Positions 44,213 through 50,059 of a DNA stretch of 64,000 nucleotides are shown one piece after another (position 1 is the stretch's first letter; each line of letters begins with the position of its first letter). Location of the stretch: the NCBI GenBank assembly GCA_041941365.1, contig JBGTQK010000004.1, positions 132,598-196,597 of the forward strand. Direction: 5' to 3'. The notes beneath the pieces were generated by a model. It was not told the DNA's origin and searched no databases. It saw only the letters and a program-made list of their open reading frames with translations. The DNA is from Cellvibrionales bacterium. Its GTDB lineage: Bacteria; Pseudomonadota; Gammaproteobacteria; Pseudomonadales; UBA7434. A program made the translations under genes and the position numbers.

Positions 44213-45046
44213 ATGCAGATTACTATTTTAACTATAAGATCAATTTCTTATTTATGCCTTTTTGCTTGCTTGGGTTTGGTAAGTAGTGCTTTGTCAGCGG
44301 CTACTGTCACTGTAAGTTCTTACGATAATACGGCAAGCCCTGCTATTTACGATACAACGACACTCAATGCCTATTCAAATTCGGATGTTATTGTAAATGA
44401 TACTTCGTTAGGTACAGTAGGTGAGAATAATGGCGAAGAGTTAATATTTATTGGTGCATCAGAGAGTTTTAGATTTAATAATGAGGGAGAACGTTATATC
44501 GACATTAATTTATTTAATGCGAATGATCAAATTACGGGTGGAGTTTCATTTGTACTTTCTTCAGCCGAAGATATGATCTGGAATTTTAATCTGGGAAATC
44601 CAGAGGCAAGTAAAATTGATATCAATAACATTTATATTCTGGCTCAAAAAGATCAAACGGTAAATATATTGGGTGAAACGCTCACTTTCAAAGAAGATGA
44701 GTACATTGTTAATGAAATATTTAGTGTGGAGCAAACTTTAATACAACGTGCAATCAAAATTTGTGGTTATTCATTACCGTATAATGGTGGTGGATGCAAT
44801 ACAGATCAGTTATTAGGTTTACCAAATCAAACCATTAATTTTCAAGATACTAATCCTTGGAATAAAAATGAATTAGGTAATATAACTTCTAACAAAGTGA
44901 CTAGCTTTAATGGATCGCTTTATGTAGATGAAGTGAATGTCACAATAGATACTAGCCCGATACCAGTTCCAGCTTCATTTTTATTATTTTTAACCAGTAT
45001 TTTAGGTTTAATAACTTTAAAGAAAAAATCAAAATTTAATTTATGA
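44213..45046 (+). CDS. Secreted hypothetical protein with PEP-CTERM/VPLPA-CTERM-like C-terminal sorting tail
   Basis: Signal peptide (LCLFACLGLVSSALSAA). C-terminal tripartite tail PIPVPAS-FLLFLTSILGLITL-KKKSK. GAGGGGG RBS. The stop overlaps the tpsB start (ATGA). Confidence 0.6.
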   Translation: MQITILTIRSISYLCLFACLGLVSSALSAATVTVSSYDNTASPAIYDTTTLNAYSNSDVIVNDTSLGTVGENNGEELIFIGASESFRFNNEGERYIDINLFNANDQITGGVSFVLSSAEDMIWNFNLGNPEASKIDINNIYILAQKDQTVNILGETLTFKEDEYIVNEIFSVEQTLIQRAIKICGYSLPYNGGGCNTDQLLGLPNQTINFQDTNPWNKNELGNITSNKVTSFNGSLYVDEVNVTIDTSPIPVPASFLLFLTSILGLITLKKKSKFNL

Positions 45047-46818
45047 TATTTACTATTAATTTAAAATCGATTAAACAGTTTATTCGTCCATACTTGCTAC
45101 TTACATTATTGGTAAGTGGGAATAGTATTGCGCAAGATATCTCACCCGGTGCACAACAGCCAGCTCAAGAAATAGCACCTATTGAAGTTCCTTCTGATAG
45201 ACCAGTTTATGAATTACCTTCTCCTGATAAAAGGGATAAGGCGTTAGACGATGAACAAATTATTGAAATAGGAAAAGTTAATTTTTTTTATAACAGCGAT
45301 AAAAAAAATACAAATGCAGAAGAAAGTATAGTTAATGAGCATCGAGAAAAAGCAGTCGATCTTGCTGAGCAATTTTTAAGAGCAAAAGAAAATCAATTAA
45401 CTTTTGAAGACCTGGAGCTACTTGCTCAAACAATAACATTATATTTTAGAGAGCAAGGTTATTTACTTTCTCGGGTTGTATTGCCACCGCAAAAAATCAA
45501 AGACAATAAATTACGCCTTGACGTTTATGAGGGAGTTATTGAGGATATTGCTGTCGAAAAAAATAGTTTTTATGCTGCAAAACAGTTGAGCAATGCTATA
45601 TTGTCTGAAAAAGGTAAAGTTGTTAAAGAAAAAAATATTGTATCCCATATGCTTAGAATAAATGATATGCCTGGCCAACAAGCTGTGGCGTTATTCAAGC
45701 CGGGTAAAAATGTGGGAACAACACTCTTGACTGTAAAATCAGTTGAAGAAAAACCACTAGCCTTTAGAGCTCGTGTAGACAATTATGGTAATGAGTCAAC
45801 AGGTGAATTACGTTTATTGCTAGGTTCTACAGTCAATAATATAACAGGTAATATTGATAAGCTCTCTGTTGATTTTATTCAGACTTTTGATAAAGGCGAT
45901 TTAAAAAACGCAAGAATCAATTATGAAATTACCCATCCTGATCTGATTCATACCTTTGGTTTGTTTTATAGTGAAACCCGGTACGATATTGAGCGATTTG
46001 CTCCAGACGGAGCAAGAGGGGATACGGAAATTGCCGAGGCTTATTTACATTCAAGCTGGTTGCGTGGTCAGTTTAGAAATTTTAGTACTCATGTCGGCCT
46101 TTCTACCAAACGAGCTGAATCTATCGATACCGGTTTTGATGGCATAGATCGTTTAACAGTTGCATCTTTATATGCAAATTGGGATAACGTAGATAGACGT
46201 TTCCGTGGAGTACAACAGTTTACATTAGGTTTACATCAGGGAATTGATGACTTTATTGGTTCTATGGATACAACCGGAAATCAAAATAGCCTTGGAAGAG
46301 TTCCTCCCGGGGTGCAAGAGTTGTCTGGACGTTTTGAAAAAATATCAGCAAATTATAGTCGTTTACAATACATATCTCGTAACCATAACTTGCTTTTAAG
46401 ACTGGCTGGACAATATACAAACGACATTATTTCTTCGTTAGAAAAAATGAGTCTGGGCGGTGGTTATAGTGTAAGAGCTTATCCAGTAGGAGAATACGTT
46501 GCAGAAACTGCGAGTTTTGCAAGTCTGGAATGGATAATAAATGCTGGACTCATTTCTGATGCCGTCGTTTTTAATGAATACACATTGGGCGAACTGCTTG
46601 AATTTTCTGTTTTCACTGATTATGGATGGGGCAAAAACCGCAACTTTGATAATAGTATTACGCGTCGTGAACTAAAAGGTTCCGGTGTTGGCATGCAATT
46701 TTCATTGCCGGATAATGAATTCTATATCAGATTATCGGCAGCAAAACCCTTAGGAAATGAAACAGCTATAAATGGCGATGATGAACAATACTGGTTTGCC
46801 ATAGGAGCAAACTTTTAA
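45043..46818 (+). CDS. ShlB/FhaC/HecB-family two-partner-secretion outer-membrane transporter (TpsB)
   Basis: Signal peptide and POTRA-like N-terminal region (LRLDVYEGVIEDIAVE). Barrel motif LGGGYSVRAYPVGEY and C-terminal aromatic residue. 591 aa. Confidence 0.85.
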   Translation: MIFTINLKSIKQFIRPYLLLTLLVSGNSIAQDISPGAQQPAQEIAPIEVPSDRPVYELPSPDKRDKALDDEQIIEIGKVNFFYNSDKKNTNAEESIVNEHREKAVDLAEQFLRAKENQLTFEDLELLAQTITLYFREQGYLLSRVVLPPQKIKDNKLRLDVYEGVIEDIAVEKNSFYAAKQLSNAILSEKGKVVKEKNIVSHMLRINDMPGQQAVALFKPGKNVGTTLLTVKSVEEKPLAFRARVDNYGNESTGELRLLLGSTVNNITGNIDKLSVDFIQTFDKGDLKNARINYEITHPDLIHTFGLFYSETRYDIERFAPDGARGDTEIAEAYLHSSWLRGQFRNFSTHVGLSTKRAESIDTGFDGIDRLTVASLYANWDNVDRRFRGVQQFTLGLHQGIDDFIGSMDTTGNQNSLGRVPPGVQELSGRFEKISANYSRLQYISRNHNLLLRLAGQYTNDIISSLEKMSLGGGYSVRAYPVGEYVAETASFASLEWIINAGLISDAVVFNEYTLGELLEFSVFTDYGWGKNRNFDNSITRRELKGSGVGMQFSLPDNEFYIRLSAAKPLGNETAINGDDEQYWFAIGANF

Positions 46819-46877
46819 TCATTTATATGAATGATAAACCAATGCTAACAGGTTGTAAGTGTGGCGAGGTAATTAAC

Positions 46878-49040
46878 ATGAAACTTTACAAAAATATTTT
46901 AGATAAGCTTTTTGCAGTTTATTTGTCGTTATTATTATGTTTTTCTACGGTAGCGTATGCTTTGCCATCCGATCAATCGGGGAATGTAACTTCTAATGAT
47001 GGAGCAACTTATTCGGTAGGCACTAATGCGAACACTGCAGTTGTTAATGTTGTTCAGGATAAAAGTGTCGTTAATTTTAATAATGATGGTTTTAATATTG
47101 GAGCAGGAGAAACCTTAACAGTAAGTGCACCAGTGAATGGTTGGAGTGCTTTATTTAAGGATAATAGTGGCAATAGAAGTGAGATATTTGGTAGTTTAAA
47201 TGGTAATGTCAGGGTGTTTTTAGTCAATGATAATGGCATTTTGTTTGGCGCTAATTCGCAAGTGAATTTACCCGCTTTAATAGCAAGTACACTCACAATA
47301 GACGAAAGTATATTTAAGAATTTTGATTTTGAAAATGCCAGTGATTTTGAAAAGTTGTTTTCTAATGGCGTCGCAAATGGAACGATAGAAGTATTGGGTC
47401 TCGATTTTATCGGTGATCAATTAGTCTTGATTTCTAAAGACATAGAATTTAATGGTGATATCAATACAGTAGGGGATTTAATTGCTCTTGCAGGTGATGA
47501 AGTATCAATGGCAATAGGTTCTAATAATTTACTTCAATTTGATATATCTGAAGGTTTAGGTTCAGTAGATGGAACGAGTGCAATCACTGTAACAGAAACA
47601 GGGAGTATCGTTGCAGATAATGTAGCTTTACAGGCAAAGTTGACTGACCCTGCTCTCATCGGTGTGAATAATAAAGGAGTGATTTCTGCAAATGGTGTAA
47701 GTGTTAGTGATTCTGGAGAGATTATGTTGACATCACATAACGGCACTTTAAAAAATATGGGCGAATTAAATGCTAACACTACATCAATGGAGGCAAGAGA
47801 AGTTGCTTTAGTTTCTGGAAGTAGTATTAACGGAACGGAATTATCTGTGGTTATTGGTGAAACAGATGGTTCTGTAAATAGTGGAATAGTAATAGGTAAA
47901 TTGACAGTTGATCAAAATGCCAATTTTAATTTGGACTCCATCGATGTTGATGGACGTGGTGATGTTAATCAGATAATTGGTTTTGCAAACTATATTATTG
48001 ACGGCATTAATAGTGGAACGGCTGCGTTTTCAGGGGTAGGTAGTTCAGGTTGGGATAATAACGGTGCTATTATTTTTAATAATGTAGCACAACTTATCGC
48101 TAATACTGAACAAGAAAATACAATATTAATTGCTGAAACTGGAGAATTAAGTACAAATGTTATTGGCCAGTCTAGTGTTTTAATTGGTGGAAGTTTAGAT
48201 GACACAGTTACCGTGTTAGGAAAAGTTGATTTGGTTTTTACTGGAGATAATGCTGATACAGTTATTATAGGGGAAAATGGAGAGATAGGTTTATTGGATG
48301 GAGGCGAAGCAAATTTCTTTGAAACAGATAAATTGATAGGCGCTAAAAACCCCAGTGATAACATTGCTGGTTCTGGAACTTCTGACAATGTATTAGCTTG
48401 GCAGAATATTGAAGTTGTAGAACCTGTTGATCCTGTTGATCCTGTTCCAGTTTTATCCGATCCTACTCCAAATGATCCAACCCCGGATATTCTTGCACCT
48501 ATACCAGAGTTCCCCACCTTATCATCTTCCACATCGGGTGACTTGGGTTTAATTGGTCAAGGCCCGGAGCTTAAAGTGCCTTGTGGATATGCCACTGATC
48601 TTACTCTTGAAGACAAGGCTTCACTAGCAGATGAGCGTGCTACGGCTAAAGCTGATGTTGTACCTACATTATGGGGAGACTGTAGTCTAACCCCTGAGCA
48701 GTTTGATTTAATCACTAGCATTATTCATTTTGATAATGATAGTCATAAAATCACTGATATAGCCGCTCTAAAACTTAACGCAGTTGCTAAAGCTTTTCGT
48801 GAGTCAAATATGTTTAATCGTATTGAGTTGGCAGGGCATACTGATGATAATGCCAGCGAGGCCTATAACGAGGCACTTGCAAAGCGTAGGGTAAAAGCAA
48901 CTGCTGAGTACCTTCTTGGCCAAGGTGTACTTGAGCAGGATATAGAGAGGTTCTCTTACGGAGAGCGGTTACCGGCTGTACCGAATGATTCAGCTGAAAA
49001 TCGAGCATATAACCGTCGGGTTACTATTGAATTAAATTAG
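46878..49040 (+). CDS. TPS-domain (filamentous-haemagglutinin N-terminal type) protein with C-terminal OmpA-like peptidoglycan-binding domain
   Basis: Signal peptide; TPS motifs VVNFNNDGFNIGAGETLTV and EIFGSLNGNVRVFLVNDNGILFGANSQVNLPALIASTL; a Pro-rich linker. OmpA_C motifs IELAGHTDDNASEAYNEALAKRRVKATAEYL and NRAYNRRVTIEL. I prefer the ATG at 46878 (GAGG RBS) over 46827. Confidence 0.8.
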   Translation: MKLYKNILDKLFAVYLSLLLCFSTVAYALPSDQSGNVTSNDGATYSVGTNANTAVVNVVQDKSVVNFNNDGFNIGAGETLTVSAPVNGWSALFKDNSGNRSEIFGSLNGNVRVFLVNDNGILFGANSQVNLPALIASTLTIDESIFKNFDFENASDFEKLFSNGVANGTIEVLGLDFIGDQLVLISKDIEFNGDINTVGDLIALAGDEVSMAIGSNNLLQFDISEGLGSVDGTSAITVTETGSIVADNVALQAKLTDPALIGVNNKGVISANGVSVSDSGEIMLTSHNGTLKNMGELNANTTSMEAREVALVSGSSINGTELSVVIGETDGSVNSGIVIGKLTVDQNANFNLDSIDVDGRGDVNQIIGFANYIIDGINSGTAAFSGVGSSGWDNNGAIIFNNVAQLIANTEQENTILIAETGELSTNVIGQSSVLIGGSLDDTVTVLGKVDLVFTGDNADTVIIGENGEIGLLDGGEANFFETDKLIGAKNPSDNIAGSGTSDNVLAWQNIEVVEPVDPVDPVPVLSDPTPNDPTPDILAPIPEFPTLSSSTSGDLGLIGQGPELKVPCGYATDLTLEDKASLADERATAKADVVPTLWGDCSLTPEQFDLITSIIHFDNDSHKITDIAALKLNAVAKAFRESNMFNRIELAGHTDDNASEAYNEALAKRRVKATAEYLLGQGVLEQDIERFSYGERLPAVPNDSAENRAYNRRVTIELN

Positions 49041-49054
49041 CATTCTAAATCGCT

Positions 49055-49082
49055 AAAAAAACCGCACTTTTGTGCGGTTTTT
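49055..49082 (+). terminator. Rho-independent terminator after the TPS operon
   Basis: AAAAAAACCGCAC-tttt-GTGCGGTTTTT, starting 15 nt after the stop codon. Confidence 0.85.
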
Positions 49083-49162
49083 CTTTTCTTTTATTTCTCC
49101 AAAACTGTATATATTTCACACTTTATGATTGAATAATAGTCAGTCTGCTCTATGTTTAATAA

Positions 49163-50059
49163 ATGACCATATTGTTTATTAAATGTGCAGAATTTTTGAG
49201 GTGTGTTAAACGAGCATTTGCTTTATTCTTTCTGGCGATTTTACCTCTTTCACTGTTTGCAAATGGTGCAGATTCGGTTTCTACCCAGGTATTATTGTTG
49301 AAAAAAGGAGTACTGCAACAACAAGAAGTAGAATCAGAAATTCATGATTTACATTCTCTTGACTCTCACATCCATCATTCATCACTGGTTACCGAACAGC
49401 ACTATCAAAAAAACTTAAAGATAGTAGAACGGTTTCTTGAAAAAAAATGGATTGTGAAGGATTCGAATCGAAAACAAACTATCTCAACTATAAAAGCTGA
49501 AATGGCTGACTATTTTGCGAAAAGGCCGGCTGCTTTTAAACTTATCTCTTCACTAAAAAAGCAGCCAATTTCACTACGTTATACACCCGGCGTGTTCAAA
49601 ACAGAAGTAAAAGGCAACTCGTTCAGTGTTCGTCGAGTCATTGTTCATTTTGATCCTTTTTCGGCTGTTCAATTAAGGGATAGTTTGGAATGTAAGAATA
49701 ACCCTGCACATTGTACAGTGAGTTCGGCGGATGCATTACTTCATGAACTTCTTCATGCCAGAGAAGCGTTACTCAATGAGAAAGCATTTATAGCCAGTGG
49801 CGCAATGAATAGTGTGGTTTATCCCTATGAGCATGAGATGCAGGTTATTGGCATGGAAAGACAAATTTATCGAGAATTATCTTTCCATGATGGAATTAAA
49901 CGTCCAATGCGTTATTCTCATACAGGGCAGTTGATTATTTCAGCTTGTGTTACTTGCTTACCTGAATTCACCAACGAAGAAGAAAGTAAAGAAGAGACAC
50001 AATATATTGCGGGCTTGTTCTCTGTTTTAACGATAAATTCAAAGTCTTTTACTTTTTAG
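49163..50059 (+). CDS. Putative secreted zinc-metalloprotease-like protein (HExxH = HELLH)
   Basis: Hydrophobic N-terminal signal-like segment AFALFFLAILPLSLFANG. HELLH at nt 49742-49756. The start codon is uncertain because there is no clear RBS. Confidence 0.5.
   Translation: MTILFIKCAEFLRCVKRAFALFFLAILPLSLFANGADSVSTQVLLLKKGVLQQQEVESEIHDLHSLDSHIHHSSLVTEQHYQKNLKIVERFLEKKWIVKDSNRKQTISTIKAEMADYFAKRPAAFKLISSLKKQPISLRYTPGVFKTEVKGNSFSVRRVIVHFDPFSAVQLRDSLECKNNPAHCTVSSADALLHELLHAREALLNEKAFIASGAMNSVVYPYEHEMQVIGMERQIYRELSFHDGIKRPMRYSHTGQLIISACVTCLPEFTNEEESKEETQYIAGLFSVLTINSKSFTF

Follow-up and report, generated by a model that had tools for sequence, protein, structure and literature searches.

A two-partner secretion (TPS) passenger that ends in a predicted peptidoglycan-binding domain is encoded in the genome of a Cellvibrionales bacterium (GenBank assembly GCA_041941365.1, contig JBGTQK010000004.1, positions 132,598 to 196,597 of the forward strand). 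This 64,000-nucleotide stretch of DNA is referred to here as the window, and positions are counted within it; the gene, tpsA, occupies 46878..49040 (+) as a stop-free frame of 720 amino acids (aa), and its product is termed TpsA-OmpA. We consider it probable that TpsA-OmpA is a type Vb surface protein whose C-terminus is kept in the periplasm, so that a strain-variable rod, likely an adhesin or receptor, is displayed irreversibly and a tether between cell wall and outer membrane arises as a by-product. Under this proposal, the protein would never be released, as its C-terminus is built to remain in the periplasm. A TpsA held in its pore by a domain that binds peptidoglycan would represent a variant, so far undescribed, of the anchoring known from Haemophilus adhesins. 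The observations comprise sequence, domains, conservation, predicted folds and the pattern of variation, from which we deduce that the protein is exported, arrested, closed by a disulfide and bound to the wall, and what its function would be.

Domain architecture of TpsA-OmpA

The mechanically called open reading frame (ORF) of TpsA-OmpA begins further 5', at 46827 (737 aa); position 46878 is the likely start, since the orthologues all begin near MK... and have the context of signal peptide cleavage, between A and LP, in common. The only strongly hydrophobic stretch of the protein in a 19-mer scan (residues 7-31) ends at AYA followed by LP, and a Sec signal peptide cleaved at this junction can be read from the sequence (aa 1-28, 46878..46961, +), its cleavage context being kept across the orthologues in the family alignment. 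A lipoprotein signal (LLLC) was considered and ruled out, because Leu at -1 is unfit for a lipobox and C21 is not conserved. Behind the signal peptide lies the TPS secretion domain (aa 35-283, 46980..47726, +), which PF05860 detects with 51.2 bits against a Pfam cutoff of 33.5 and which TIGR01901, the filamentous-haemagglutinin N-terminal family of NCBIfam, matches over residues 71-141 with 43 bits against a cutoff of 29.1. Its characteristic motif reads FLVNDNGILFG, that is, NDNG.

A structural model was predicted with AlphaFold2 from a 14-sequence family alignment and reached a mean predicted local distance difference test (pLDDT) score of 78. Residues 37-516 are modelled as continuously beta-rich, with pLDDT mostly above 85, residues 521-604 as disordered, and residues 606-720 as an alpha/beta OmpA-like fold. 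In Foldseek searches, the top matches of the N-terminal part were EtpA (8cpk, E=8e-11), HMW1 (2odl) and HxuA (4i84), with E values from 8e-11 to 1e-6, and the same three proteins are nearest to the TPS domain among solved structures in sequence as well as in structure. Beyond the TPS domain, the beta-helix continues as a strain-variable shaft (aa 284-512, 47727..48413, +; about 55% aa identity to a sister strain) that is composed of 14% Gly, 11% Asn, 10% Ile and 9% Ser and contains no Pro, and matches to a shaft profile were limited to members of the TpsA-OmpA family and three other proteins. The combination of a Sec signal, an above-threshold TPS domain, an adjoining TpsB and a predicted beta-helix past the TPS domain fits a TpsA passenger. 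Repeats resembling GGxxxDTF in the distal shaft were considered as Ca-binding RTX (repeats in toxin) units, and this assignment was dropped for want of Pfam support even at E<=1. An antisense ORF of 180 aa (47990-48532, -) inside tpsA translates into a low-complexity sequence rich in Gly, Ser, Thr and Pro, a mirror of the shaft and linker, and it is almost certainly not a gene.

The partner transporter is encoded directly upstream (45043..46818, +). Its 591 aa contain POTRA and ShlB/FhaC-type beta-barrel domains by Pfam (ShlB 86.4 bits, POTRA_2 43.2 bits), the nearest solved relatives are the CdiB transporters 6wim and 6wil, and a TpsB gene adjoins tpsA in 11 of 11 related loci. The N-terminus of the mature TpsB (within 45043-45200), QDISPGAQQPAQEIAPIEVPSDRPVYELPSPDK..., is proline-rich and by eye does not resemble the plug helix (H1) with which FhaC and CdiB begin; a permanently occupied pore might make such a plug unnecessary.

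The putative anchor region

Between the shaft and the C-terminal domain lies a region of three consecutive elements. A Pro/Val-rich linker with pLDDT below 50 (aa 513-555, 48414..48542, +) is predicted to span the pore; Pro makes up 11 of its 43 residues, or 28% over residues 513-552, and the linker measures 27-43 aa in all 14 family members and is Pro/Val-rich throughout. It is followed by the conserved motif LGLIGQGPELKVP (aa 556-568, 48543..48581, +), with the consensus LGLxGxxxxLxLP and with L556 and P568 invariant in the family alignment. The strict pattern occurs only in the TpsA-OmpA family and in a group of short sister TpsAs, with 0 matches in about 200,000 other residues. Directly after this motif begins a Cys-Cys loop (C569...C602, 48582..48683, +), a putative periplasmic disulfide stopper between linker and OmpA domain. 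Both cysteines, C569 and C602, are present in each of the 14 sequences, enclose a loop of 10-35 aa and are located where a stopper of the HMW1/HxuA type would sit; in the same sequences, the OmpA domain starts 11-17 residues past the second Cys.

The C-terminal OmpA_C or Pal-like domain (aa 606-720, 48693..49037, +), for which peptidoglycan binding is predicted, is matched by PF00691 over residues 618-713 with 52.8 bits against a Pfam cutoff of 27.2. Pal proteins are its best solved relatives (Acinetobacter baumannii Pal, 4g4v, E=3.8e-14), NCBIfam yields many matches of the Pal, YiaD, YfiB and MotB types along with a weak one to NF047726 (TpgA), and Foldseek aligns the C-terminal part with Pal, OprF, YfiB and OmpA C-domains at template modelling (TM) scores of 0.78-0.89 and root-mean-square deviations of 1.8-2.2 A. 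Residues F618, D621, H654, D656, N664, L667 and R671 are invariant in the family, with D656 lying in GHTD and R671 in LAKRRV (L-x-x-x-R), aligned with GHTD and ERRA of A. baumannii Pal. In the A. baumannii OmpA-like domain, Asp271 and Arg286 form the diaminopimelate-binding pair (PMC12108004). By motif position and the alignment to Pal, as distinct from a computed alignment to 3TD3, D656 and R671 are equated with this pair and would thus correspond to the diaminopimelate-contact positions of OmpA-like domains.

A preliminary description made from the letters of the window had listed a Sec signal, an N-terminal TPS domain of the haemagglutination-activity type with NDNG for the usual NPNG, a beta-helix-like region, a Pro-rich linker, a C-terminal OmpA_C module and a ShlB/FhaC-type TpsB gene directly before tpsA. 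All of these were recovered, and the profile searches it had proposed for Haemagg_act, OmpA and ShlB/POTRA returned the above-cutoff scores given here. The invariant Cys pair, the LGLxGxxxxLxLP motif and two more conserved genes of the locus had escaped that description.

Family distribution and origin

A word-index homology search with the full protein retrieved TpsA-OmpA itself and one 81%-identical relative. An exhaustive search of 1.84 billion representatives added 12 more clusters (counted at 50% identity), whose members, 656-749 aa in length and 31-41% identical, match between about residue 10 and residue 719, and one cluster at the 90%-identity level contains 97 members on many contigs. 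A genome scan with a profile from a 6-sequence alignment, using one genome per species, identified 11 loci. All of the genomes concerned are marine, were assembled from metagenomes or single cells, and bear the label Cellvibrionales, Pseudomonadales or Gammaproteobacteria. In every locus that extends far enough, the gene order is up277 (270-290 aa), TpsB, TpsA-OmpA and a HExxH protein (dn298), and this four-gene cassette is usually flanked by an alpha/beta-hydrolase gene and an HDOD gene. Such common gene order and flanking genes across the loci suggest that the cassette is vertically inherited within the clade. The domain, Cys-pair, motif and cassette signals are far beyond chance. In three metagenome-assembled genomes, two reading frames take the place of a single tpsB or tpsA orthologue (L012, 5385-6658 and 7037-9437; L013, 6965-9312; L014, 4091-5930), which could be an error of assembly or a false frameshift, or could mean that the cassette is decaying in certain lineages.

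The TPS+OmpA architecture is inconspicuous in databases, since the Pfam TPS model detects 5 of the 14 family members even at E<=1, missing the other 9, and the names given to members mention OmpA only ("OmpA family protein" at NCBI and JGI, or "OmpA-like peptidoglycan-associated protein"). In the literature searched for TpsA with OmpA, peptidoglycan binding or a C-terminal anchor, and for PEP-CTERM with two-partner secretion, this architecture is undescribed, in line with the preliminary description, whose author knew of no characterised TpsA of this kind. An Ala/Pro-rich linker and an OmpA domain also form the C-terminal end of two unrelated long TpsAs of the classical FHA type, P0061 (1303 aa) and P0062 (1795 aa). 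P0062 carries ESPR, DUF5649, YDG and MBG domains, and Glug repeats also occur in this set; neither protein has cysteines near the OmpA domain or a Cys loop. Because they look like a separate occurrence, the TPS...OmpA combination appears to have arisen more than once.

The short sister TpsAs (370-418 aa; L003, 6506-7618, -; L015, 5368-6624, -; and P0111) consist of a TPS domain and a low-complexity linker, with LGLxxxxxxx(I/L)(R/K)LP about 10 residues before the C-terminus, and contain neither Cys loop nor OmpA domain. They look like the unfused ancestral form, and the existence of TpsAs ending just past the LGL...LP motif makes a fusion event the likely evolutionary origin of TpsA-OmpA.

Variation between sister strains

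The locus was compared with that of a single sister strain, L001, from a Logan assembly. The flanking DNA of the two strains is 99.4-99.7% identical, and the only hypervariable patches are two tracts without a megablast-level match, one in up277 (44320-44801) and one in tpsA (47756-48504). Within TpsA-OmpA, aa 1-200 are about 99% identical and aa 547-720 are 100% identical, whereas residues 281-543 are about 55% identical. Residues 241-280 are the same at 39 of 40 positions in protein yet differ by 14 synonymous changes; the whole of aa ~205-543 represents a divergent, replaced allele. In the adjoining TpsB gene, 10 of 592 codons differ. At its 3' end, the replaced tract reaches into the linker as far as about residue 543, the alignment having been used for residues 543-547. 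All parts predicted to be periplasmic are therefore invariant, and it is the shaft, predicted to be exposed, and the pore-spanning stretch of the linker that vary. Such a pattern fits the predicted membrane-spanning arrangement, without proving it.

Proposed topology and mechanism

A plausible sequence of events can be outlined from the features described above. The precursor would be exported by Sec and its signal peptide removed. In the periplasm, the Pal-like OmpA_C domain would fold and bind peptidoglycan non-covalently through the D656/R671 pocket, and C569 and C602 would be oxidised into a loop. The HMW1-type TPS domain would dock on the POTRA domains of the adjoining TpsB, and, judging from what is known of the TPS family, the chain would thread outward with its N-terminus first, forming outside a predicted beta-helical rod of about 480 residues, which by our own estimate would be about 10 nm long (a rise of about 4.8 A per coil of about 20 residues). 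Translocation would halt once the folded, disulfide-stapled and wall-bound module meets the transporter, with the Pro/Val-rich linker of 27-43 residues staying in the TpsB barrel. The result would be one continuous chain running from peptidoglycan through OmpA_C, the Cys loop and the linker in TpsB to the surface rod.

The preliminary description had suggested such a membrane-spanning tether, with the linker threading the pore. Domains, family conservation, invariant D656 and R671, the bounded linker and the strain pattern all agree with this suggestion, and the topology itself is deduced from them. The spanning principle, however, is already known: in HMW1 and HxuA, the C-terminal end remains in the periplasm, and a globular loop closed by a disulfide bond keeps the TpsA locked in its TpsB pore (reviewed in PMC5422565). 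The novelty therefore lies in the added OmpA_C domain and not in the membrane-spanning topology.

Some observations weigh against a permanently anchored rod. Searched against the sequences of solved chains in the PDB, the Cys-loop segment gave no match at E<=10, so homology to the HMW1/HxuA anchor is unproven, and AlphaFold2 models aa 521-604 with low confidence. The TPS domain, the predicted distal tip of the rod, is conserved rather than variable, which is odd for a ligand-binding tip, though recognition by TpsB also constrains it. Finally, the conserved HExxH neighbour may cleave the anchor, and retention would then be conditional.

Comparison with known systems

The closest parallels are the HMW1/HMW1B and HxuA/HxuB pairs of Haemophilus influenzae, which share with TpsA-OmpA the most similar TPS domain and a Cys pair C-terminal to the beta-helix. 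Their anchor comprises the last ~20-66 residues and ends the protein, whereas here 118 residues follow C602, including the 115-residue Pal-like domain, and for the anchor region no solved chain of similar sequence could be detected. HMW1 is accompanied by an HMW1C-type glycosyltransferase, in contrast to the PEP-CTERM-like and HExxH proteins found here. TpsA-OmpA would therefore work like the HMW1/HxuA family and is not shown to be a member of it, a homologous anchor at the extreme C-terminus having been sought and not found. CdiA and FhaB also resemble the proposed arrangement in that a TpsA crosses the outer membrane by way of TpsB and keeps its C-terminal part in the periplasm, and in CdiA a Tyr/Pro-rich YP domain has been implicated in secretion arrest (PMC9086364). 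However, TpsA-OmpA is 5- to 8-fold smaller, and FHA-1/FHA-2 repeats and the YP, pretoxin/toxin and prodomain families were not detected by Pfam in TpsA-OmpA or its 13 relatives even at E<=1; without FHA repeats and toxin or prodomain families, it is not of the CdiA or FhaB type. Retention would here be achieved by a wall-binding domain and would presumably be permanent or protease-controlled rather than receptor-triggered.

The C-terminal domain shares its fold and pocket residues with Pal, OmpA/OprF, MotB, TssL and YfiB, whose domains tie envelope machines non-covalently to peptidoglycan. A lipid, a beta-barrel of their own or a transmembrane helix holds those proteins in a membrane, whereas TpsA-OmpA would be attached to the outer membrane only through a chain threaded through the barrel of another protein. 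Surface adhesins coupled to peptidoglycan through a periplasmic wall-binding domain are also known from intimin and invasin (type Ve), with a periplasmic LysM domain in intimin, and from the Ata pair of Acinetobacter, in which TpgA provides an OmpA-like wall-binding domain. The three systems divide these functions differently: barrel, passenger and wall-binding domain form one chain in intimin, the wall-binding domain is separate in Ata/TpgA, and here passenger and wall-binding domain form one chain and the barrel is separate.

A further analogue is LapA of Pseudomonas, a type I adhesin that is plugged in an outer-membrane pore and released by the periplasmic Cys protease LapG. Common to LapA/LapG/LapD and the present locus are a folded periplasmic module too big for the pore, a putative periplasm-facing protease encoded alongside, and signalling genes nearby (HDOD here, 7TMR-DISM-GGDEF in L003 and L015). 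The secretion system differs, the protease is a Cys protease there and a putative zincin here, and the opposite end of the protein is retained. For the present locus, cleavage and control by cyclic di-GMP would be hypothetical.

Neighbouring genes of the cassette

The first gene of the cassette, up277 (44213..45046, +), encodes a secreted protein of 277 aa with a PEP-CTERM-like tail consisting of PIPVPA, a hydrophobic stretch and KKKSK. Its hydrophobic segments are residues 2-35 (the signal peptide) and 248-270, and it contains an invariant Cys pair, C184 and C195, in the context CGYxLP...GC.TD. The TIGR02595 PEP_CTERM model scores 15.3 bits, just under its cutoff of 16; orthologue tails carry VPLPG or VPVPA, a hydrophobic stretch and RRRK, and all their weak NCBIfam matches are to PEP-CTERM families, including the flocculation protein PepA. 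A homology search with up277 retrieved only itself and the sister strain, and the gene is found 5' of tpsB in 10 related loci. An exosortase family was not found among most window ORFs of >=150 aa outside the cassette, which were scanned or represented by Pfam-annotated L001 equivalents, with a few unscanned. As the up277 stop overlaps the tpsB start (ATGA), the two genes would be co-transcribed and are probably translationally coupled.

Past tpsA, 15 nt beyond its stop, lies an intrinsic-terminator-like hairpin with a T-run (49055..49093, +), which reads AAAAACCGCAC TTTT GTGCGGTTTTT, an 11-bp stem with 5 G-C pairs, followed by the T-run CTTTTCTTTT. Such a strong terminator-like hairpin between tpsA and dn298 suggests that dn298 is probably a separate transcription unit. 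An Rfam scan of the window found nothing, and thus the operon carries neither a riboswitch nor another RNA element.

The last gene of the cassette, dn298 (49163..50059, +), encodes a putative periplasm-facing zincin of 298 aa, in which an N-terminal hydrophobic anchor or signal (residues 11-39) precedes a conserved domain. It lies 3' of tpsA in all 11 related loci, and HELLH, YPYEHE 25 residues downstream (H224, E225) and four Cys are invariant in the orthologue alignment. No Pfam or NCBIfam family reached threshold for dn298 or up277, and a PDB profile search with dn298 was also empty. The dn298 model has a mean pLDDT of 66.6, and its weak Foldseek neighbours are all zincins (botulinum neurotoxin light chain, E=0.1; the Pro-Pro endopeptidase PPEP-1, E=0.23; anthrax lethal factor; Wss1). 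Most orthologues are longer than the window copy and begin with an extra N-terminal domain, absent here, followed by Arg-rich and hydrophobic segments, which suggests an inner-membrane protein with a probably cytoplasmic N-domain and a periplasmic catalytic domain.

The dn298 family adjoins three kinds of TpsA. Besides the OmpA-tailed type, its homologues in L003 and L015 stand beside TpsB and a short TpsA (370 and 418 aa, respectively) ending in LGL...(I/L)(R/K)LP, and the homologue in L018/L019 directly follows a very large DUF3739-containing TpsA with a Cys-X12-Cys tail, that is, a giant passenger with a C-terminal Cys loop. In L017, the homologue lies beside an OmpA-domain protein, and in L002 and L016, nothing related is found alongside. 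A functional link between dn298 and TPS passengers is supported by the homologues at other TPS loci and by the restriction of the LGL...LP motif to the TpsA-OmpA family and its short sisters, and the two together motivate the reading that dn298 cleaves the anchor.

Alternative explanations

Under this reading, which we regard as rather unlikely, the OmpA/Cys-loop module retains the protein until a periplasmic protease, with dn298 as the candidate, cuts the linker or the LGL...LP region and the beta-helix is shed, much as with a prodomain or in the Lap system; the mature, functional protein would then be a released or conditionally released one. The constant position of dn298 behind tpsA, its invariant HELLH and YPYEHE, four Cys fitting an oxidising compartment, zincin neighbours including a Pro-Pro endopeptidase, and homologues next to TpsAs that end in LGL...LP or a C-terminal Cys loop all point in this direction, and there is precedent in the FhaB prodomain, which is degraded in the periplasm, and in the release of LapA by LapG. 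However, the Foldseek matches are weak (E 0.1-1, TM ~0.25), no protease family profile matches dn298, a strong terminator separates it from tpsA, and homologues occur at L002 and L016 away from TPS genes. Moreover, the whole neighbourhood, including the abhydrolase and HDOD genes, is syntenic in the clade, so adjacency of dn298 alone is weak evidence. An extended version, more doubtful still, takes the four genes as an undescribed surface-display module with regulated release, in which a Cys-loop/OmpA-plugged rod would be cut at LGLxGxxxxLxLP by the HExxH protein on a signal and the PEP-CTERM-like protein would be the surface partner or cargo of the rod, a type V analogue of LapA/LapG. This version would explain why up277 and the shaft are the sole hypervariable patches.

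TpsA-OmpA could also be an entirely periplasmic scaffold, an unexported beta-helix bridging the POTRA domains of TpsB, bound by the TPS domain, and peptidoglycan, bound by the OmpA domain. Both interaction domains could act in the periplasm, and they are the most conserved parts of the protein; yet TPS domains are established to start translocation, a strain-hypervariable tract within a beta-helix of about 480 residues is what surface-exposed structures typically show, and the conserved, length-bounded, Pro-rich and disordered linker would be left without a role, which makes this arrangement improbable. Full secretion, whereby the unfolded whole chain passes TpsB and the OmpA-like domain acts extracellularly on wall fragments, polysaccharide or other cells, appears similarly improbable. 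TpsB does carry unfolded chains, and some OmpA-like domains have no proven peptidoglycan ligand, but the conserved diaminopimelate-pocket residues and Pal-like fold indicate the usual periplasmic ligand, the domain is immediately preceded by an invariant Cys pair, in accord with the known stopper principle, and identity of the C-terminal 174 aa between strains with a variable shaft is unexpected for an exposed domain. The existence of short sister TpsAs (370-418 aa) that end just past LGL...LP might also suggest an artefact, such as a chance fusion, a frameshifted pseudogene or a misassembly joining a short TpsA to an OmpA-family gene. This is most improbable and is refuted by conservation of the fused frame, which about 12 divergent clusters and 11 genomes carry unbroken at 31-41% identity, the residues at the junction being invariant, and by the 97 members of a single 90%-identity cluster on many contigs.

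Genomic context and significance

The window has a G+C content of about 36% and derives from a motile gammaproteobacterium. A complete-looking polar flagellar cluster (2892-27163) encodes FlgN, FlgA, rod, hook and L/P-ring proteins, FlgJ, FlgK, an FlgL-like protein, flagellin and FliD, and continues with a FleQ-type regulator and a sigma-54 two-component pair. Three adjoining genes at 556-2895 encode a radical SAM protein with DUF3641, a family-2 glycosyltransferase and a DUF2064/CofC-like protein.

If the proposed topology of a surface rod anchored in the TpsB pore and at the wall is true, the "disulfide plug" principle of HMW1 and HxuA would be extended to a true wall anchor, and a new coupling of peptidoglycan, outer membrane and surface appendage would be realised in a single polypeptide. 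A compact TpsA of 720 aa that is naturally stalled by a well-understood folded domain would also be attractive for trapping and imaging a TpsB-substrate intermediate. Censuses of domain architectures under-count the TpsA-OmpA family, given the OmpA-only names of its members and the low sensitivity of the Pfam TPS model. Abundant marine Cellvibrionales/Pseudomonadales share the cassette as a conserved and syntenic locus, and the variation of the shaft between strains suggests that it takes part in attachment or is targeted by phages or grazers.

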